Of a stretch of 38,377 nt of DNA, positions 2,298-33,353 are shown piece after piece. A program made the translations under genes and the position numbers. Numbering within the stretch: the stretch's first letter is position 1; every line of letters begins with the position of its first letter. The DNA comes from a virus (taxonomy: Duplodnaviria; Heunggongvirae; Uroviricota; Caudoviricetes), in the IMG/VR virus record IMGVR_UViG_2531839475_000013; one strand, written 5' to 3'. Below the pieces are notes generated by a model. The model saw only the letters and a program-made list of their open reading frames with translations. It was not told the DNA's origin and ran no database searches.

Positions 2298-4483
2298 GAA
2301 ACTTCCCCATTGGTTGAAAATATGGCTCCTCCAACGCCAAGTGTATTTCGTGTTGTGCTCAACCTCAGAGGGCTGGAGTCAGAATTAGAATATCCTGTAG
2401 CAGAAATAAAAGATCCTCCACTAATAGTCAACTGCGGAACATCGGCTATATCTGAATAAGTTCTGTCAGCAACAGTATTATTTATAGCCACATATGATCC
2501 AAAAAAACTTCTTATTGTTTGGTTTTTAACTTTACTTCCTTCAATGGTTATCCTACTACCACAGTCGGCAATAAATCCTGAATCTGCATCCAGCGTTGCA
2601 TTCATAAAAGAAGCTTCAGATCTCTCTACATCAATCCATCTAATATCTTTTGTGGGATTTGCACCAAATACATGACAAATATTAGAGTTAAACCTTACAC
2701 CATCTTGGAGGTGCATTAATTTTTTTATATCTGTACCCCATAGCCTTGGAAAATTAACAGATGCTCCTGCATGGCAATCAAATCCCAGCTCAGCCCCTGA
2801 GATATCTACAGCCTTTCCTGAAATAACAGCACCAGTGTCTGCATTAACGGCTGTTCCACAATTGCGCATATCATTACCAGCAACATCAACGCAACCCGCA
2901 CCATCAATACGCACACCAAGTGCACATCCATAAAAACCTTTTTCAATATTTGGTTCAAGGACTTTACCACTTGTTTCTGCATCACTTTCTTCAACGTCAT
3001 GTCGTCTTGCATCAACATATGCTGTATGAATGCAGGTTAATCCACGATATGAGCAATGTATAGTTTTATGGTCGCGTATATTAACATTTGAACCATCTCT
3101 TACATTCCATCCTATATAACAATAGCTTGCACTTGACCCCTGAAAATCTGCTTTAACATTATAAATACAATTAACTGACGCAACCGTACTCTCTGTGCAC
3201 CGTTCAAACTTGCTTACAGGCATTGATGCCTTGACATTATTTACCAGTTGCAGGGAAGAGTATCTGCTATAAGAAAAATCACATACGTAATACCCTTCTG
3301 GCATATATGCAGCAACACTTTCCTCATCAGGAGCACATCCGGTATGATATGCACTAATTTTTGCACCAAAACTACCATGAATTCCAACGTAGAACTTTCG
3401 AGCACCTGAATACGGATAGAAATTAAGTTCAGCTTTTTGAGTTACAATAAATGCACAAACATCGCTATCATCTCTATTTTCTTCGATCTGAATAGCAAAT
3501 ACAGGACTTTTTGCTGCATCGCAAATGTAAAATAAATACTTGTATTCGTAATACGTTCTAACGATTTTAGTAAACAAACGAGTGTCAGAGAAAACCACTG
3601 AGTCTTCTGATGTTATTTTAATCCAAGACAAATCAACACCTGAACTGAATTCAATTTGATAGTTGATAATATGCCCGGTCTTAATTCTTATTTCGCAGAA
3701 AGCATTACCACCATCCCACATAGGTCTCATTGACTGGGCTGCAATGATTGCATCTTTGAGTGTAGGGTAATCACCCCATTCGCCAACAGTAATAACAAAA
3801 GTATAATATGAGTTAAAAACAGCGGCATTTTTGCCTTTGGATATCAACTCCTTAATCATAAAAATATTATCTTCGTAATCACAAGGAGAAATTATATCCC
3901 TCATTTTGCTTTGAAATGTTCGTTGTCTTGCCCCGCTTCCTGACGGTATAAACCAACCAAAACCACCAACAACCCCGGCGATTGCAGCATCGACATAATT
4001 ACGCATTGAGCGATTATTTACAGCGTCCTGCTCAAATGATGGATCTGCAAGGTTAGAAATTTTGTTTTGCTTTGCATCGTAATATTTTGCAAGCAAAGAT
4101 GGTTTCATCAATGCACGTCTGAACCACCCAAAACATCGCTGGATCAGCATCGTCAGGTAGTCAAATGCATCTTCATGAACTTCGGGGAAAAATTTTCCCT
4201 GATTGCGAAGATCAGTCTCCTGCACCACATCAAGCACACGCTCTATCGTAATTCGCCAGCCAGCAGCAAGCGGCGACGGGAGAACCACTTCACCGCCACT
4301 ATAAGTGCCCGCTCCAGTTACCTTATAACCGGTATCCAGAACCAATTCTGTTACGTTCCCGTTCAGGTCAGACACCTGAACAACCAGGTCGGTTTTTTTG
4401 AAAATACGGAAGGTATACGGAAATGATGTCGTAACGCCGTTACCGGTGTATTCGTTGTGGTCAACTTCGGTTGAGACCGTCAT
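2294..4483 (-). CDS. tailspike / tail fibre protein (T7 gp17-like N-terminal anchor plus beta-helix-like receptor-binding domain)
   Basis: 729 aa; N-terminus (NEYTGNGVTTSFPYTFRIFKKTDLVV) resembles the conserved podophage fibre attachment domain; remainder is Gly/Asn/Ser/Thr-rich like pectin-lyase-fold spikes; GGAGAT RBS; C-terminal ~1.8 kb is AT-rich versus the N-terminal part. Confidence 0.8.
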   Translation of the reverse strand: MTVSTEVDHNEYTGNGVTTSFPYTFRIFKKTDLVVQVSDLNGNVTELVLDTGYKVTGAGTYSGGEVVLPSPLAAGWRITIERVLDVVQETDLRNQGKFFPEVHEDAFDYLTMLIQRCFGWFRRALMKPSLLAKYYDAKQNKISNLADPSFEQDAVNNRSMRNYVDAAIAGVVGGFGWFIPSGSGARQRTFQSKMRDIISPCDYEDNIFMIKELISKGKNAAVFNSYYTFVITVGEWGDYPTLKDAIIAAQSMRPMWDGGNAFCEIRIKTGHIINYQIEFSSGVDLSWIKITSEDSVVFSDTRLFTKIVRTYYEYKYLFYICDAAKSPVFAIQIEENRDDSDVCAFIVTQKAELNFYPYSGARKFYVGIHGSFGAKISAYHTGCAPDEESVAAYMPEGYYVCDFSYSRYSSLQLVNNVKASMPVSKFERCTESTVASVNCIYNVKADFQGSSASYCYIGWNVRDGSNVNIRDHKTIHCSYRGLTCIHTAYVDARRHDVEESDAETSGKVLEPNIEKGFYGCALGVRIDGAGCVDVAGNDMRNCGTAVNADTGAVISGKAVDISGAELGFDCHAGASVNFPRLWGTDIKKLMHLQDGVRFNSNICHVFGANPTKDIRWIDVERSEASFMNATLDADSGFIADCGSRITIEGSKVKNQTIRSFFGSYVAINNTVADRTYSDIADVPQLTISGGSFISATGYSNSDSSPLRLSTTRNTLGVGGAIFSTNGEVS

Positions 4484-4587
4484 GTTAAATCTCCAGATAG
4501 TCGCAGCACCCGTTGCGCCGCATATCCGGTTATTCTATTACCTGAAAAACCACATATGGATAGATAACCCATAAATACGAACAGATA

Positions 4588-4602
4588 TTACCTTTCAGGT
4601 GA
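4588..4602. promoter_or_regulatory. operator-like palindrome TTACCTTTCAGGTGA
   Basis: Member of the repeated TTACC-N5-GGTAA family; upstream of the LexA-box promoter of the small antirepressor-like gene. Confidence 0.55.
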
Positions 4603-4641
4603 TTCGCAAAACGTGCTGGATAGCAAACAAATTATTTGCTA

Positions 4642-4657
4642 CTGTATAAATATACAG
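4642..4657. promoter_or_regulatory. LexA (SOS) box CTGTATAAATATACAG
   Basis: Perfect CTGT-N8-ACAG with AT-rich spacer inside a sigma70-like promoter (TTGCTA 4636..4641; TATTGC 4659..4664), about 20 bp upstream of the ATG at 4679. Confidence 0.75.
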
Positions 4658-4678
4658 TTATTGCATGGAGAAGATAAG

Positions 4679-4936
4679 ATGCAGCAGTATCACTATCCAC
4701 TGGAAGACGGATTTACCGAAAGGATTCACACGCCGGGAGGCGTCAGGTCACTGGTGGAGGGATCGCATTTGATGAAATTACTCCGGGATCTCGATAAGGA
4801 TGGATTTAATGTCGATGGCCCACTTGCCGAACTGACTGCACTGATTAACTACGTCACCAGCTCACAGATGTCTATGCGGGATCTGCAAACACATCTCGAC
4901 TATTGTGCCGAACAATTACGAAAACAAACCAGATAA
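4679..4936 (+). CDS. small antirepressor-like protein (standalone copy of the Bro-N antirepressor C-terminal module), LexA-controlled
   Basis: 85 aa from the ATG at 4679 (RBS GGAGAAG); sequence IHTPGGVRSLVEGSHLMKLLRDLDKDGFNVDGPLAELT...RDLQTHLDY aligns with the C-terminus of the downstream Bro-N protein (IHSPSGVLGLTENSLLMNLLNQLQEDGHDVSGAAAELT...RDIQTHAEY). Confidence 0.6.
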   Translation: MQQYHYPLEDGFTERIHTPGGVRSLVEGSHLMKLLRDLDKDGFNVDGPLAELTALINYVTSSQMSMRDLQTHLDYCAEQLRKQTR

Positions 4937-4967
4937 GGTTTGCAATTGCCAAGTGGAGTGCTTATAT

Positions 4968-4982
4968 TTACCTTTGCGGTAA
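4968..4982. promoter_or_regulatory. operator-like palindrome TTACCTTTGCGGTAA inside a larger inverted repeat
   Basis: Perfect TTACC-N5-GGTAA, flanked by GGAGTGC (4955..4961) and GCACTCC (4992..4998). Confidence 0.5.
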
Positions 4983-5076
4983 ATTTACATCGCACTCCTC
5001 TTGTGCCATAGTAATCGGGCACTGGCAAAATCCAGTGCCGGGATTGGCGTCCCGAGTTACTACAGAGGCACATATG

Positions 5077-5096
5077 CCGCATAAGCGGTTTTTTTT
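5077..5096 (+). terminator. weak intrinsic terminator (CCGC-ATAA-GCGG then T8)
   Basis: Short GC stem followed by eight T; lies between the small antirepressor-like gene and the Bro-N gene. Confidence 0.35.
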
Positions 5097-5249
5097 ATGT
5101 GTAAAGCGCACCTATTCTATGGTGGGCTGTGTGGGGGCACCGAAAGGTGCGCCGGGTCCTTTGTAGCCGGTTACGCCAACCCTGCACAGTTCACCACCAA
5201 CCGATTGGCGTCGGTAGTGGTGATTAACCTAACTACAAAGGTGATCACT

Positions 5250-5936
5250 ATGACTGCTAACGTAACCCCATCTGTTTTTCATTTTGAATCAGAAGCAACC
5301 ATTCGAGCCATTGTTATTGATGGAAATCCTTGGTTTGTTGCCAAAGACGTTATTAAAGCTCTTCAACTGACAAACCCCACTATGTCAATAAAATCTCTTG
5401 ATGATGATGAAAGGGCTAAATTTAACTTAGGCCGTCAAGGCGAAACCAATATTATCAACGAGTCAGGCCTCTACACACTGATCCTCCGCTGCCGCGATGC
5501 AGTAACACCAGGCACTATCCCCTACCGCTTTCGCAAATGGGTTACAGGTGAGGTACTTCCTCAGATCCGCCGCACCGGAAGTTACATTAAAAACTCGCTC
5601 CCGCAAGAAGAACGCATAAAGATGGTTGCCGACCAGGTAGCCAACGCCACGGCGTCAGCAGTGATGCAGGCAATGAAGATAGAGAACAAAACCTACAGCG
5701 CCCCACTGAAGCCCGGCTACCGCAGCCTGATTCACTCGCCGTCTGGTGTTCTCGGCCTGACGGAGAACTCACTGCTGATGAATCTGCTGAACCAGTTACA
5801 GGAAGACGGGCACGACGTATCGGGCGCGGCGGCGGAGCTGACCACCATGTTCTGCTACATCGTCGGTGTGAGTAAATGCCTGCGTGATATCCAGACCCAC
5901 GCGGAATACATCAACGACAAAGCAGGGTTCTTCTGA
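5250..5936 (+). CDS. Bro-N domain antirepressor
   Basis: N-terminal region (VIDGNPWFVAKDVIKALQL...) matches the Bro-N/antirepressor DNA-binding domain; RBS AAAGGTGA; start chosen at the ATG at 5250 rather than the ORF-track start at 5097. Confidence 0.7.
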   Translation: MTANVTPSVFHFESEATIRAIVIDGNPWFVAKDVIKALQLTNPTMSIKSLDDDERAKFNLGRQGETNIINESGLYTLILRCRDAVTPGTIPYRFRKWVTGEVLPQIRRTGSYIKNSLPQEERIKMVADQVANATASAVMQAMKIENKTYSAPLKPGYRSLIHSPSGVLGLTENSLLMNLLNQLQEDGHDVSGAAAELTTMFCYIVGVSKCLRDIQTHAEYINDKAGFF

Positions 5937-5978
5937 CAGCGGCGGCACAGGGATGTGCCTTTAAATAATTCTGTACGA

Positions 5979-6021
5979 TTGCAGACTGGGGGTGAATAGC
6001 GTACTATTACCTTAAAGGTAA
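5979..6021 (+). promoter_or_regulatory. sigma70-like promoter (TTGCAG-17-TACTAT) overlapped by operator TTACCTTAAAGGTAA (6007..6021)
   Basis: Hexamers with 17-bp spacing; perfect TTACC-N5-GGTAA palindrome over the -10/+1 region, immediately upstream of the accessory cassette. Confidence 0.5.
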
Positions 6022-6047: not shown

Positions 6048-6257
6048 ATGGGATTTTGGTTCGCTCGTACAAAAACGAGGGATAATGCACCCAGCCCTCA
6101 GGCAAAAAATGCAGAAGTTCCGGCGTCAGCGCAGGTTAACAAGCGTGGTGGTGTGTATATCTCATCACAGCAAATTTCTGAGCTTCCTGAGGTTAAGGAG
6201 ATGCGTCGTCTCGCTGCTGCAATCGTTAAACAGGATCTTGCCACTGTAAGGAAATAG
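6048..6257 (+). CDS. small hypothetical protein, first gene of the accessory cassette
   Basis: 69 aa; strong RBS GAGGAGGAG; stop overlaps the GTG start of the next gene (TAGTG). Confidence 0.5.
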   Translation: MGFWFARTKTRDNAPSPQAKNAEVPASAQVNKRGGVYISSQQISELPEVKEMRRLAAAIVKQDLATVRK

Positions 6258-7120
6258 TGTTGTTAGCTCTTCTAATTATCCCCATTCTGGTTAGTGGTTA
6301 TATTATGATAACCGCTAACCAGTATCATTATTTCCGTTTATACCGACATGAAGGCCAGCTTCTTTATATGAAAGTTGCTGCATTAGGTACATATTGCCTT
6401 GTTGCTTCGGTAATAATTGCCGCATTTATAAAATATAAATATCCTGATTTTCACCTAGTTCACGATATGGTGGAAACTTTTAATGTAACGTCAAAACCAG
6501 AAACAGATAGAATTTACATGTGGCTACTTCTTCTGTCAGTCACATCAATTTGCTTCTCTTTGTGTTATGTATCTTTTGTTTGGCTAAAAGATCTTCTTTT
6601 AGGTTGTTTTTATAAACGTGATATTTATGACAAAATATCAGAGGCAATGAAAGCTAGGGTATTGCGAAAAACGTACTCCCAGGGTTCTTTAGATTTGCTA
6701 TTGCTTGATGCAATCGAATCAGATCCTAAGAAACCAATGTTAATTACTTTATCATCAAATAAAGTATACGTTGGAATAATAAATGGTTCTGGTGAGCCAA
6801 CGGAAAATCAAGGGCCACACCAACACATATCTTTTGTTCCTTTAATGTCAGGGTACAGAAACAAAGAAAATTTATCTGTTACATTTACAAACGCTTACCC
6901 AGGTGAAATCCAAATTAAGCGCAGTGCTGCGATAAAAGGGATAAGCAAAAAGAAAGTTCAAGGTCTAGAAATTATGGTATCTATAGACGAAATAAGTCAT
7001 ATATCATGGTTTGACTTTGAAGTATATAAGGCAACAAATAACAAAGTAGAAACAAAGGGTCATGTTGTTAATGTGACCAAAAATGGTCGCAACATATACT
7101 ACAGAAGTGGCAGAAAATAA
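6257..7120 (+). CDS. membrane protein, 3 N-terminal TM helices plus ~170-aa soluble domain, no recognised family
   Basis: 287 aa from a GTG start coupled to the upstream stop (alternative ATG at 6305); TM helices LLALLIIPILVSGYIMI, AALGTYCLVASVIIAAFI, IYMWLLLLSVTSICFSLCYVSFVWL; strongly AT-rich. Confidence 0.6.
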   Translation: MLLALLIIPILVSGYIMITANQYHYFRLYRHEGQLLYMKVAALGTYCLVASVIIAAFIKYKYPDFHLVHDMVETFNVTSKPETDRIYMWLLLLSVTSICFSLCYVSFVWLKDLLLGCFYKRDIYDKISEAMKARVLRKTYSQGSLDLLLLDAIESDPKKPMLITLSSNKVYVGIINGSGEPTENQGPHQHISFVPLMSGYRNKENLSVTFTNAYPGEIQIKRSAAIKGISKKKVQGLEIMVSIDEISHISWFDFEVYKATNNKVETKGHVVNVTKNGRNIYYRSGRK

Positions 7121-7145
7121 ATTTTACGCAGTTTAGGTGGCTTAT

Positions 7146-7649
7146 ATGGATAATACTATCTTAGGCGCATTGATAGGTGCAGTTATTGCTATAGTTTCCA
7201 CTTATATAAATGCAGGACAAGGATACAAAAACAGCATAAGATTAGAGCGACAAAAAATATTAAGGGATAAACGCGAGCAATTATTTATAAATTGTATACT
7301 TACTAAAAAAGTCATAGATTCAAGCACAATTACCATTCTCAATTTCGTAAAAAATGCCAGATACCACTCTGATAGTAAATTTGACGTATCAAGAGCGAAT
7401 CCGTTGCAAACGATGGAAATGCTAATAAACATATACCTTCCTGAGTATAAAAAAGACTTACAAGAACTCAATAATGCGTATCAAGAATTTCACAAATACT
7501 ACTCTCAATATACATGTGCACATACCTTCAAAAATATGCCTGATAATGAGAAGTCGAGGTTTATTGAGGAGGCTGATTTTTATGCAAAAAAGATATATGG
7601 CAAACTTAATGATATTAAGGACAAGATATCATTAAACTCAATAGTATAA
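7146..7649 (+). CDS. membrane-anchored protein, 1 N-terminal TM helix plus helical domain, no recognised family
   Basis: 167 aa from the ATG at 7146 (RBS AGGTGG); TM helix ILGALIGAVIAIVSTYI; AT-rich like its neighbour. Confidence 0.55.
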   Translation: MDNTILGALIGAVIAIVSTYINAGQGYKNSIRLERQKILRDKREQLFINCILTKKVIDSSTITILNFVKNARYHSDSKFDVSRANPLQTMEMLINIYLPEYKKDLQELNNAYQEFHKYYSQYTCAHTFKNMPDNEKSRFIEEADFYAKKIYGKLNDIKDKISLNSIV

Positions 7650-7723
7650 CAGCGATACTGCTGCTGACGGCTCCCGCTGCGGTGGGCGTTCTGCGGATTC
7701 CCGCCCAGGCGGCGGTGGCATTC

Positions 7724-7751
7724 GTTAAAAACAAGGCCGCGAAAGCGGCCT
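7724..7751 (-). terminator. intrinsic terminator ending the late operon (AGGCCGC-GAAA-GCGGCCT, T-run on minus strand)
   Basis: 7-bp GC stem with GNRA loop; on the minus strand it is followed by TGTTTTTAAC; lies between the convergent lipoprotein gene and the accessory cassette. Confidence 0.6.
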
Positions 7752-7763
7752 GTGACATGTCAC
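7752..7763. repeat. perfect 12-bp palindrome GTGACATGTCAC (copy 1 of 3)
   Basis: Identical 12-mer also at 25171..25182 and 27436..27447; abuts the terminator hairpin. Confidence 0.8.
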
Positions 7764-7766
7764 GAC

Positions 7767-8180
7767 TTATAAAGATGACTGATATTTTACAACTCTGTTC
7801 ATGGCATCTTTTTTCACCGAGCTGATATCAGTTCTTATTTTGGCTTCGTCATTACTGCTTATCATGCTATTAATTTTTTGCACTGACATGCCGTTTCTTT
7901 CAGCCATTGCACATACAGCAGCATCGTATGAAGAACTCGCTGCGATGGATATCACCTTGTTACACTCAAACACAGCACCTTCAGCAATATCAGATGCCGA
8001 TGAGGCTGGCTTGGTATAAGTCTTGACGTAGTGATCAATACAACTATCCTTCGCCGTCTTGGCAAGAGAAAAATCCATTTTAACTTTGTCGCAATATGCC
8101 TTATCAACACCGTCATAAACATCATAGGATGTCGAGCAAGCGGATATCAAAAATACCGATAACAGCAATAATTCCTTCAT
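7767..8180 (-). CDS. Cys-rich lipoprotein, last gene of the late operon (candidate exclusion lipoprotein)
   Basis: 137 aa; signal peptide with lipobox (MKELLLLSVFLISAC); six Cys in the mature part; lower G+C than the flanking virion genes. Confidence 0.6.
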   Translation of the reverse strand: MKELLLLSVFLISACSTSYDVYDGVDKAYCDKVKMDFSLAKTAKDSCIDHYVKTYTKPASSASDIAEGAVFECNKVISIAASSSYDAAVCAMAERNGMSVQKINSMISSNDEAKIRTDISSVKKDAMNRVVKYQSSL

Positions 8181-20239: not shown

Positions 20240-20259
20240 GTGGGTCTGTTACGACCCAC
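20240..20259 (-). other. RNA stem-loop (GTGGGTC-N6-GACCCAC) after the major capsid gene
   Basis: Perfect 7-bp inverted repeat in the gap after the capsid gene; no U-tract, so probably a stabiliser or processing site rather than a terminator. Confidence 0.4.
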
Positions 20260-24236: not shown

Positions 24237-24273
24237 TTGACATTTAACGCACAAATTATTACCTTTCAGGTAA
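24237..24273 (+). promoter_or_regulatory. promoter (-35 TTGACA at 24237..24242) with operator TTACCTTTCAGGTAA (24259..24273)
   Basis: Consensus -35 hexamer; perfect TTACC-N5-GGTAA over the -10/+1 region; module resembles 4530..4605 and 30185..30275. Confidence 0.5.
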
Positions 24274-24594: not shown

Positions 24595-24671
24595 GTGGCA
24601 TTAGCTCAGCTGGACAGAGCAACCGCCTTCTAAGCGGTTGGTCGCAGGTTCGAATCCTGCATGCCACGCCA
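24595..24671 (+). tRNA. tRNA-Arg (anticodon UCU)
   Basis: Hand-folded cloverleaf: acceptor GTGGCAT/ATGCCAC, D-arm GCTC-AGCTGGACA-GAGC, anticodon stem ACCGC/GCGGT with loop CTTCTAA (anticodon TCT), T-arm GCAGG-TTCGAAT-CCTGC, discriminator G, encoded CCA. Confidence 0.9.
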
Positions 24672-24757: not shown

Positions 24758-24835
24758 CAGCAGGACGCCATTGCGATGACTTCATGCTGTAAACCCGTAC
24801 AGCAACGGAAGGCATAACTCATTGCTTCCAGTTCG

Positions 24836-30195: not shown

Positions 30196-30271
30196 TTACC
30201 CCTTAGGTAATTAAAAACCACATAAGACATAAAATCAATAGAGATTAGAACATTTTATTACCCTGCAGGTA
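30196..30271. promoter_or_regulatory. pair of perfect operator palindromes (TTACCCCTTAGGTAA 30196..30210; TTACCCTGCAGGTAA 30257..30271)
   Basis: Two perfect TTACC-N5-GGTAA sites 61 bp apart between the P-like gene stop and the next early gene start; intervening AACCACATA motif also seen in the other modules. Confidence 0.55.
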
Positions 30272-30309
30272 ATCATGTAGGCGTAAAAAAATGCGCTATC
30301 GCGCTGGTA

Positions 30310-32249: not shown

Positions 32250-32480
32250 TCATGAGTAGAAGAAGTATGCCAGTTCTGCTTTTGAGCGCAGCCATTGTCT
32301 TGATTTACAGGCTTTAAAAAGCCCATCCATCAATACCTTACCTGGCATTTTGCGCTTACCTGTTAAGTGAGTCTGGATATAGTGACTCGTCGTTCCGGCT
32401 TCCTGTGCGAAGGCTTCACGCTCATCCGGAGTAAGTGCAAGCCAGTGCTTTTTGAAATCGAAATGTCCGTTATTGCTCAT
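32250..32480 (-). CDS. Cro-like HTH regulator
   Basis: 76 aa, divergent from the repressor gene across an operator-rich 154-bp spacer; HTH-like segment FAQEAGTTSHYIQTHLTGKR. Confidence 0.55.
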   Translation of the reverse strand: MSNNGHFDFKKHWLALTPDEREAFAQEAGTTSHYIQTHLTGKRKMPGKVLMDGLFKACKSRQWLRSKAELAYFFYS

Positions 32481-32516: not shown

Positions 32517-32579
32517 TCACCTATAAGGTAACAAAAATCAAGGATAGTTACCCATGAGGTGCATTTACCTGTTGGGTAA
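32517..32579. promoter_or_regulatory. immunity-region operators: three TTACC-N5-GGTAA-type sites (32517..32531, 32548..32562, 32565..32579)
   Basis: TCACCTATAAGGTAA, TTACCCATGAGGTGC, TTACCTGTTGGGTAA in the spacer between the divergent cro-like and repressor genes. Confidence 0.6.
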
Positions 32580-32634: not shown

Positions 32635-33219
32635 ATGAAAAGTATCCAGGACGTCCGCAGGCAAAATCTCAACGACTTGATCGACCGTGAATTCAATGGT
32701 GTTCAGACGCGGATGGCTGAAAAACTTGGAACTCAGGCAAATCTGGTAAACCGCTGGGCTCTTGGCAAGAAGGTTATCGGCGACCAGGTTGCGCGAAAAA
32801 TTGAAGCTGCCGCCAATAAACCCCGTAACTGGCTTGATATCGATCGCTCGCTTTCTCAGGAAGGTTTTCAGCCTGTCGGACCAAGCGACATTGGTCAACT
32901 GGCGGCTCACAACCTGGAACGCTGGATGAGCGAAAGCCGCGACCTTTCAACGCAGGGAAAACTTCACCGCGCATCCGGCGTCGCCCAGGTGACAATCAGC
33001 CGCCTGTTAAACAATGAGGTCAGCGTTTCCATTTCCACCCTGGAGAATGTTGCATCCGCATTCGGGCGTCACGGCTATGAATTACTGATTCACCCGCACG
33101 ACCCTGCGACTATCAACTATGACCGCTCGCGCTACGCTTTGTTACCCGAAACCGAGAAAGCAAAGATCGAAAGTTACATTGAATTTGTCATCAACCAGAA
33201 CGAAAAAAACAAACAATAA
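32635..33219 (+). CDS. prophage repressor, two HTH domains, no S24 peptidase domain
   Basis: 194 aa; two HTH-like segments (TRMAEKLGTQANLVNRWALGKK and ASGVAQVTISRLLNNEVSVS); no Ala-Gly/Ser-Lys autocleavage module visible; little or no RBS, so possibly leaderless. Confidence 0.6.
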   Translation: MKSIQDVRRQNLNDLIDREFNGVQTRMAEKLGTQANLVNRWALGKKVIGDQVARKIEAAANKPRNWLDIDRSLSQEGFQPVGPSDIGQLAAHNLERWMSESRDLSTQGKLHRASGVAQVTISRLLNNEVSVSISTLENVASAFGRHGYELLIHPHDPATINYDRSRYALLPETEKAKIESYIEFVINQNEKNKQ

Positions 33220-33276: not shown

Positions 33277-33353
33277 TTACCTAACGGGTAATTTTTTTAA
33301 CTCATATCTATTGACATCAAACCATATACGCATAATTATTACCTCAACGGTAA
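33277..33353 (+). promoter_or_regulatory. early promoter (-35 TTGACA 33311..33316) bracketed by two perfect operators (33277..33291 and 33339..33353)
   Basis: TTACCTAACGGGTAA and TTACCTCAACGGTAA; the proximal one overlaps the -10/+1 of a promoter driving the recombination operon. Confidence 0.55.

Follow-up and report, generated by a model that had tools for sequence, protein, structure and literature searches.

A probable two-input antirepressor locus in a Uetakevirus prophage of Escherichia coli, with an SPC32H-type LexA/Ant/Rep switch and a Bro-N::Ant fusion under predicted IsrK/C4 control

Two neighbouring antirepressor genes were analysed in a 38,377-nucleotide stretch of viral DNA (IMG/VR record IMGVR_UViG_2531839475_000013), which as a whole is referred to below as the window. 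The first gene, ant (4679..4936, + strand), encodes an 85-amino acid (aa) antirepressor of the type known from phage SPC32H. The second gene (5250..5936, + strand) encodes a 228-aa antirepressor, called the fusion below, in which a Bro-N domain (nt 5301-5561) is followed by a C-terminal Ant-like module (nt 5688-5921), as assigned by Pfam, PHROG and homology to Ant. Taken as a whole, the locus is very probably a two-input induction module of a Uetakevirus prophage. Its SOS-responsive core is a further case of the known SPC32H-type LexA/Ant/Rep switch and not a new mechanism, since Ant, the repressor Rep and the LexA box are all orthologous to those of SPC32H. What is new here, as read from the DNA, is that the C-terminus of the Bro-N antirepressor is recognised as an apparent paralogue of Ant, that a predicted IsrK/C4 RNA switch together with a putative repressor operator appears to control the Bro-N gene, and that the paired layout seems to be conserved with swapping of the head domains. 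No description of such a paired or two-input arrangement of antirepressors was found in the searchable literature.

The tailspike N-terminus and the lysis and virion genes identify the window as a phiV10/epsilon15-like podovirus prophage of Escherichia coli, genus Uetakevirus, and megablast aligned it with phiV10, TL-2011b, vB_EcoP_ZX5 and phiv142-3 at 93-97% identity. The 1.46-kb region 4484-5940 was found at a coverage of at least 80% in 292 of 5426 complete E. coli genomes (about 5%), in which the RefSeq labels are 'hypothetical protein' for the small gene and 'BRO-N domain-containing protein' for the larger one. In the window as in SPC32H, the ant slot is divergent from the tailspike gene. 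The gap of 314 bp between ant and the Bro-N gene holds two RNA genes recognised at the Rfam level, isrK and C4.

The small gene is preceded by a Shine-Dalgarno (SD) sequence, GGAG (4667-4670), 8 nt before the ATG. Its product had no Pfam family, and the searches with Pfam and PHROG profiles placed it in a family of its own, phrog_450. Among solved structures there was one match, chain E of PDB 5D50 ('Anti-repressor protein' of phage SPC32H), to which residues 2-84 of Ant aligned over residues 3-85 with E=1.4e-46. By tblastn, Ant was 86.7% identical to the ant product of SPC32H, and the homologous genes are labelled ant and rep in the SPC32H record (GenBank KC911856). In the SPC32H system, Ant is produced after self-cleavage of LexA and inactivates the repressor by binding to it (PMC7380047). 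As a tetramer, Ant binds two dimers of Rep and breaks up the Rep tetramer (PMC9638917), and the C-terminal domain of Rep mediates both tetramerisation and Ant binding (PMC9986798).

The sequence-only reading on which this work builds had claimed a perfect CTGT-N8-ACAG SOS box at 4642-4657, about 20 bp upstream of the 85-aa open reading frame (ORF). The core is present as CTGTATAAATATACAG within the 20-mer TACTGTATAAATATACAGTT (4640..4659), and the distance between the end of the box and the ATG is 21 bp. The 20-mer agreed with the LexA consensus TACTGTATATATATACAGTA at 18 of 20 positions. It was the only site in the 38 kb with at most three mismatches to this consensus, and none of 100 shuffled sequences contained one. 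Scoring with a LexA position weight matrix, which had been proposed as a check, was carried out with a matrix that drew on 21 LexA sites of the E. coli chromosome, whose own scores ranged from 12.8 to 26.7 bits. The site at 4640-4659 reached 27.4 bits, exceeding all 21 training sites, and was both top-scoring and unique in the window; the runner-up had 13.7 bits, and the maxima of shuffled sequences averaged 12.1 bits with a peak of 18.8. Two other matches to CTGT-N8-ACAG, at 20246 and 24787, were rejected because of GC-rich spacers and because the better of them, at 13.7 bits, lay within the range of the shuffled maxima. The latter palindrome, TGCTGTAAACCCGTACAGCA at 24785-24804, is probably due to chance.

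Alignment with relatives placed the box at the same position in phiV10, TL-2011b, SPC32H and Tyrion, where the CTGT and ACAG half-sites are invariant and the spacer is variable. In the Klebsiella relatives the box reads ATGT...ACAG. The box in the window is orthologous to the ant box of SPC32H, which is the site altered in SPC32N: in this region SPC32N differs from SPC32H by one base, a C to A change that turns ACAG into AAAG and corresponds to position 4655 of the window. SPC32N is reportedly a variant with constitutive synthesis of Ant. The further claim that the box lies inside a promoter stood in part. No promoter above threshold was found by the sigma-70 scan around the LexA box. The best conserved candidate for an ant promoter on the + strand, TGGATA-17-TACTGT (4617..4645), with its -10 element inside the box, is suggested by the alignment, in which CTGGATAG and TACTGT are kept in relatives whereas the interior of the box varies; it falls below the threshold of the scan.

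The presumed target of Ant is the product of rep (32635..33219, + strand), a 194-aa repressor of the SPC32H type that matched chain A of PDB 5D50 with E=4e-42 and also matched 5D4Z. As had been expected of this repressor, two helix-turn-helix (HTH) domains and no autocleavage domain were found, namely HTH_3 at residues 104-147, a weak Cro/YdaS-like HTH at 21-61 and no match to the S24 peptidase family in the domain search. Rep was 42% identical to the Rep of SPC32H. The antirepressor is thus far better conserved than its target (about 87% against 42% identity to SPC32H), and the operator half-sites are the same in both phages. The proposed route of SOS induction, in which LexA represses an antirepressor and this antirepressor acts on a repressor lacking self-cleavage, is supported, as both Ant and Rep match chains of 5D50 and the box is orthologous. 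Because of the orthology to the SPC32H system, it is highly probable that LexA keeps ant off, that DNA damage frees ant for expression and that Ant then disassembles Rep.

A palindromic motif, TTACC-N5-GGTAA, is likely to be the operator of Rep, in which case the unit of isrK, C4 and the fusion would be repressed by Rep. It occurs 13 times in the window, compared with 0.66 expected, and 11 of the 13 copies are intergenic; in SPC32H there are 18 against 0.65 expected, at equivalent places, clustered round rep and on promoters. Two copies (32517-32531 and 32565-32579, together 32517..32579) lie between rep and a divergent Cro-like gene (32250-32480, - strand, 76 aa), where SPC32H has three equivalent sites beside rep. 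Two further copies at 33277 and 33339 (33277..33353), 62 bp apart, flank the early-operon promoter that follows rep, TTGACA-17-AATTAT. The motif was assigned to Rep because the sites bracket rep and the Cro-like gene and flank the early promoter, and because the pattern in SPC32H is the same. Operator pairs with a centre-to-centre spacing of 62 bp recur, at 30196-30272 and 33277-33353 in the window and at 35972-36048 in sequence L008, a spacing consistent with a tetrameric repressor touching two sites.

Operator-like sequences are found at both antirepressor genes. Upstream of ant, the palindrome TTACCTTTCAGGTGA (4588..4602), with one mismatch to TTACC-N5-GGTAA, lies 54 bp before the LexA box, and the distance between the two is the same in phiV10, TL-2011b, SPC32H, Tyrion and the Uetakevirus-like prophage L010. 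The second palindrome, TTACCTTTGCGGTAA (4968..4982), is situated 51 bp upstream of the 5' end of isrK. In phiV10, TL-2011b, Tyrion, two Klebsiella phages, L010 and a second such prophage, L011, the operator lies at a distance of 48-51 bp from isrK, on its upstream side, with invariant half-sites and a variable centre in the relatives. The operator at 4968 overlaps the -10 element of one promoter-like sequence of the + strand, TTGCAA-17-TATATT (4940..4968, from the promoter scan), which shares its final base with the start of the operator, and abuts the -35 element of another, TTTACA-17-CATAGT (4984..5012, + strand), which carries an extended -10 TG. A TAnnAT-like hexamer abuts TTACC in six of six aligned relatives. 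The block of the second promoter is likewise kept in all six, and its start was placed near 5019.

The larger gene differs from the small one in its wiring, as it has no LexA box and has instead an operator, a terminator and an antisense RNA, features that the sequence-only reading had missed. The isrK small RNA (5019..5095, + strand) was identified with Rfam RF01394 at 74.2 bits (gathering score 50) and ends in a terminator stem (5076-5089) followed by T8; the c4-a1b1 model RF03163 overlaps it at 44.3 bits, just below its gathering score. The C4 antisense RNA (5115..5201, + strand) matched RF01695 at 79.5 bits (gathering score 45). Two segments of C4 are exposed, a' (CCUUUGUAG, 5158-5166) and b' (ACGCCAA, 5173-5179), and these are exactly complementary to two segments in the leader of the Bro-N gene (5205..5241, + strand), namely a2 (CUACAAAGG, 5233-5241) and b2 (UUGGCGU, 5205-5211). 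The a2 segment contains the SD sequence AAAGG, 8 nt before the ATG at 5250. IsrK carries decoy copies of both targets, b1 (UUGGCGU, 5044-5050) and a1 (CUACAGAGG, 5060-5068), the latter with one G-U pair.

Prediction of duplexes between whole RNA molecules was uninformative, giving long duplexes, and explicit pairs of loop and target together with counts of covariation were used instead. Across six phages, 100% of the cells compared for C4-leader and C4-IsrK pairing formed a pair, against 26-49% in slid controls. Compensatory double changes were found in four of seven b pairs (GGCGU/ACGCC, GGUCU/AGACC and GAGAC/GUCUC), a 1-nt deletion is common to C4, IsrK and the leader in phiV10 and TL-2011b, and L010 shows a further a-specificity, CCACUUAG/CUAAGUGG, in all three places. 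Both isrK and C4 recur in all nine other fusion-carrying loci examined, among them phiV10, TL-2011b, Tyrion, two Klebsiella phages, vB_EcoP_ZX5, L010 and L011. Because of this covariation across relatives, it can be stated with considerable confidence that C4 would block the ribosome-binding site of the fusion and that IsrK would compete for C4.

A frame is open from the ATG at 5097, just past the isrK terminator, through C4 and into the Bro-N gene (5097-5936), and the 279-aa product called by many pipelines is probably an open-frame artefact. An icd- or orf45-like coding ORF across C4 was considered and rejected, as the length of the upstream ORF is not conserved: from the conserved ATG it runs for 279 (the in-frame fusion), 24, 24, 4, 37 and 45 codons in the six phages. 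A conserved ATG followed by ORFs of 4-45 codons in various frames points to conservation at the level of the RNA.

The spacer between ant and isrK (4937-5018) can form a long hairpin (z=-4.5) that has the operator palindrome at its centre and no U tract, and the corresponding hairpin of phiV10 (2028-2106 in its record) has perfect 18-bp arms (z=-7.0). This hairpin could be an extended operator, an element for processing or stability at the 3' end of the ant mRNA, or an attenuator. Between the stop codon of ant and the terminator of isrK, no further terminator was found. For this reason SOS-induced ant transcripts may, speculatively, end in IsrK sequence and titrate C4, linking the two tiers. 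In TL-2011b an insertion of about 1.1 kb on the opposite strand (2780-3868) lies between ant and isrK, with an extra operator at 3529 beside the usual one at 3622, so that a coupling of ant and IsrK transcripts cannot be essential.

The earlier suggestion that the small ORF is about 40% identical to the C-terminus of the Bro-N protein agreed with BLASTP, in which residues 2-79 of Ant aligned with residues 147-224 of the fusion at 41% identity (E=2e-16). The homology is real, and the aligned stretch, given before as about 65 residues, is longer: its 78 residues take in nearly the whole of Ant. The C-terminus of the fusion also aligned to residues 3-79 of the crystallised Ant with E=1.1e-13. The Bro-N domain (PF02498) covers residues 18-104 with 72.3 bits (cut-off 25.6, E=5e-20), and the fusion matched both phrog_130 ('anti-repressor Ant') and phrog_450. 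A word-indexed protein search with the C-terminal fragment returned 20 proteins and no full-length fusions, and profile and full-length queries were therefore used. The module profile retrieved 64 clusters (50% identity) among 1.84 billion representatives, in which the module occurs either alone (85-95 aa) or as the C-terminus of proteins of about 150-320 aa whose N-terminal heads are Bro-N, AntA, Phage_pRha or ORF6N. Seventeen columns are invariant across both subfamilies of the module, spread over its whole length and not confined to one face. Among the phage records, Rep was found in 36, Ant in 35 and the fusion-type module in 34, essentially the same Uetakevirus-like genomes; within this collection the module was found only in phages with this Rep family.

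The slot of the Bro-N gene is occupied by AntA::Ant in L010 (9230-10651) and by Rha::Ant in L011 (9404-10960), where the 319-aa call is artefactually extended at its N-terminus over isrK and C4. In both loci the order is tailspike, LexA-type box, small ant, operator, isrK, C4, fusion and virion genes. SPC32H and epsilon15 lack the second gene, and the fusion copy of phiV10 (2340-3016 in its record) is frameshifted within the Ant-like module and annotated as two ORFs, p23 and p22. A constant Ant module with an exchangeable head argues that the module, and not Bro-N, carries the lineage-specific function, which would most simply be the binding of this Rep family. It is reasonable to regard the shared module as a candidate repressor-binding domain, given its alignment to the crystallised Ant and its occurrence, within the phage collection, only in phages with this Rep family.

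Direct, limited experimental support for the antirepressor role of the fusion comes from vB_EcoP_ZX5, in which overexpression of ORF4 made lysogens about 1000-fold rarer and lowered rep mRNA by 75% (PMC9782041). ORF4 of ZX5 is 82% identical to the fusion overall and identical from about residue 72 on, and the Rep of ZX5 is identical to that of the window. Among the E. coli members, function has been studied only in the ZX5 work, which treats the Bro-N protein as 'the' anti-repressor and leaves SPC32H, LexA, the small gene and the small RNAs unmentioned (PMC9782041). On balance, it is moderately probable that the fusion acts by binding Rep through its Ant-like module.

The proposed mechanism then has two inputs. 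In the first, LexA of the host would occupy 4640-4659 in the lysogen and silence ant. DNA damage would remove LexA, and the 85-aa Ant would be made and would assemble, in SPC32H as a tetramer. Ant would bind Rep and split the DNA-binding Rep tetramer into dimers, so that Rep would leave the TTACC-N5-GGTAA operators and the early promoters would fire. In the second input, the fusion is taken to act as an antirepressor too, its last 80 residues being a diverged copy of Ant. Its promoters are overlapped by the operator at 4968-4982 and would thus probably be repressed by Rep, and most transcripts would terminate at the isrK terminator. On read-through RNA, C4 would pair with b2 and with a2, which holds the SD sequence, and block translation, whereas IsrK, bearing copies of both targets, could titrate C4. 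Production of the fusion would accordingly be confined to cells in which Rep has begun to fail or to newly entered cells without a matching C4. Its most likely action would be to sequester Rep via the Ant module, either reinforcing the commitment to lysis or overcoming the repressor of a resident relative. A more general and tentative proposal is that of a conserved two-tier locus in which one repressor-binding module is used twice, in an Ant gated by LexA and in a fusion with a swappable head held by operator, IsrK and C4; the second tier would then be a commitment latch, an anti-immunity factor between prophages, or both.

Several points weigh against this explanation. The contact of Ant with Rep is extrapolated here, because Rep is only 42% identical to the Rep of SPC32H. 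The assignment of the Rep operator rests on position and conservation, and the Cro-like protein could share the sites or own them. Since the fusion module is only 41% identical to Ant, its partner may differ from that of Ant. The AlphaFold2 model of the fusion, built on a 20-sequence alignment, had a mean predicted local distance difference test (pLDDT) score of 58, with about 50-64 in the Ant-like part, and a Foldseek search of this model against the PDB gave no match with E below 0.1. Finally, SPC32H is induced with Ant alone and the fusion of phiV10 is frameshifted, which indicates that the second antirepressor is dispensable for basic induction and thus accessory.

The strongest alternative for the fusion is suggested by the immI locus of P1/P7 and by the Ant of P22, which work as anti-immunity systems. 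The fusion could be mainly an anti-immunity weapon, with which an infecting genome inactivates the Rep of a resident relative, the resident C4 giving immunity; the immunity groups would then correspond to the three or four C4 specificities. Control by C4 and IsrK is a hallmark of superinfection immunity of the immI type, and the specificities are distinct and internally compensated, with GGCGU, GGUCU and GAGAC as b and CUACAAAGG, CUAAAAGG and CUAAGUGG as a segments. The record of phiV10 labels the fusion gene 'putative anti-immunity protein', and there is a precedent in the repressor-controlled FsoA of Fels-1, which targets the repressor of another prophage and has no role in its own induction (Lemire et al., PMC3121763). 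Against this stands the finding that ORF4 of ZX5 lowered the lysogeny of its own phage, whose Rep is identical to that of the window. We give this alternative real weight while considering it less probable than not, and it is compatible with the two-input explanation.

Another possibility is that the Ant-like module serves for oligomerisation only, the activity residing in the DNA-binding Bro-N domain with no contact to Rep. Ant is tetrameric in the SPC32H structure, and the heads joined to the module (Bro-N, AntA, Rha and ORF6N) are all of a DNA-binding type. This possibility is nevertheless unlikely, as Bro-N, AntA and Rha heads swap freely in one slot while the Ant module stays, the module accompanies only this Rep family within the phage collection, and its 17 invariant columns extend over the whole length and not over one face. 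Still less probable are mixed tetramers in which the fusion module would co-assemble with the small Ant and damp or boost the SOS trigger with no direct action on Rep: the two genes are neighbours and code for paralogues of a protein that is an obligate oligomer, yet an identity of 41% is low for co-assembly, and SPC32H works without the fusion. A chance origin of the LexA box and the small ORF, for which the small size of the ORF alone would speak, is refuted by the homology to a crystallised protein, the conservation, the score and uniqueness of the box, the change in SPC32N and the occurrence of the module at a coverage of at least 80% in the 292 E. coli genomes.

Recognising the small gene as an SPC32H-type ant explains how DNA damage is sensed by common prophages, including the O157-converting phiV10 group. 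Among the many 'Bro-N antirepressor' annotations, the identity of the C-terminus of the fusion supplies one class with a partner that can be tested, and the locus is a compact system for asking why a phage retains two differently wired copies of an antirepressor module.

A few observations were made outside the two genes. Between the Bro-N gene and the virion genes lies a cargo block (6048-8180), whose + strand carries orf69, orf287 and orf170 and whose - strand carries an ORF for a 137-aa lipoprotein-like product; the N-terminus of orf287 is hydrophobic, and the block is missing at the equivalent slot in phiV10 and SPC32H. The cargo genes gave no Pfam or PADLOC match and matched only PHROGs of unknown function, and the block could be cargo for superinfection exclusion or defence. 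Ahead of the cargo genes at 6048-7649, a promoter-like sequence, TTGCAG-17-TACTAT, with an overlapping operator TTACCTTAAAGGTAA (6007-6021), was found on the + strand (5979..6021). The gap between portal and terminase holds a tRNA-Arg(TCT) gene (24595-24671). Some 320 bp upstream of this gene lies an operator (24259-24273), which follows closely on a TTGACA hexamer, and both a tRNA-Arg and an operator recur at the corresponding place in SPC32H. A promoter whose -10 element would be overlapped by the operator at 24259 was rejected, as the spacer to TTGACA is too short.

The closest known system is that of SPC32H (Kim & Ryu 2013; Kim et al. 2016; PDB 5D4Z, 5D50), with the same Ant and Rep families in the same slot. 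The two have in common an orthologous LexA box, with 21 bp between it and the start codon, and TTACC-N5-GGTAA sites round rep and upstream of ant. SPC32H differs in having the small ant only, without isrK, C4 or a Bro-N::Ant fusion, and Rep has diverged far more than Ant between the two.

The small Ant can also be compared with 186 Tum, N15 AntC and GfoA/GftA of Gifsy (Lemire et al. 2011, PMC3121763), which like Ant are small LexA-controlled proteins encoded outside the immunity region that inactivate a non-cleavable repressor by binding to it. The likeness to 186 Tum and the Gifsy prophages drawn by the sequence-only reading holds for the functional logic, which is the same; these proteins are taken to be analogues, as the Pfam and PHROG profile searches left Ant in its own family, phrog_450, and gave no Tum- or GfoA-type family for it, and the true homologue is the Ant of SPC32H. 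The SPC32H authors reportedly describe Ant as structurally distinct from antirepressors of the Tum, AntC and Gifsy types.

For the predicted RNA control, the immI locus of P1/P7 (c4-icd-ant) has the same arrangement as the window, with C4 between upstream a1/b1 and downstream a2/b2 sites, the downstream site covering a ribosome-binding site before the antirepressor gene, and specificity variants are known there as well. The window differs in that C4 targets the SD sequence of the antirepressor gene itself, with no conserved icd-like coupling ORF, in that a Bro-N::Ant fusion takes the place of the Ant of P1, and in that the promoters carry a repressor operator. The isrK-orf45-anrP locus of Gifsy-1 (PMC4825925) shares with the window an IsrK with its own terminator, read-through into a C4-like RNA (STnc1160 in Gifsy-1), an IsrK-linked antirepressor gene downstream and a tie to prophage induction. 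In Gifsy-1, IsrK relieves the translational block on AnrP and promotes induction (Hershko-Shalev et al. 2016, PMC4825925). In contrast to Gifsy-1, orf45 is not conserved in the window, and a LexA-controlled paralogous antirepressor lies immediately upstream. As in other modular antirepressors of the Bro-N, AntA, Rha and ORF6N classes, the fusion joins an N-terminal domain of such a class to a variable C-terminal domain. It differs from them in that its C-terminal domain has an identified homologue, a repressor-binding protein of characterised structure, and this homology to the crystallised Ant provides the fusion with a specific predicted partner.

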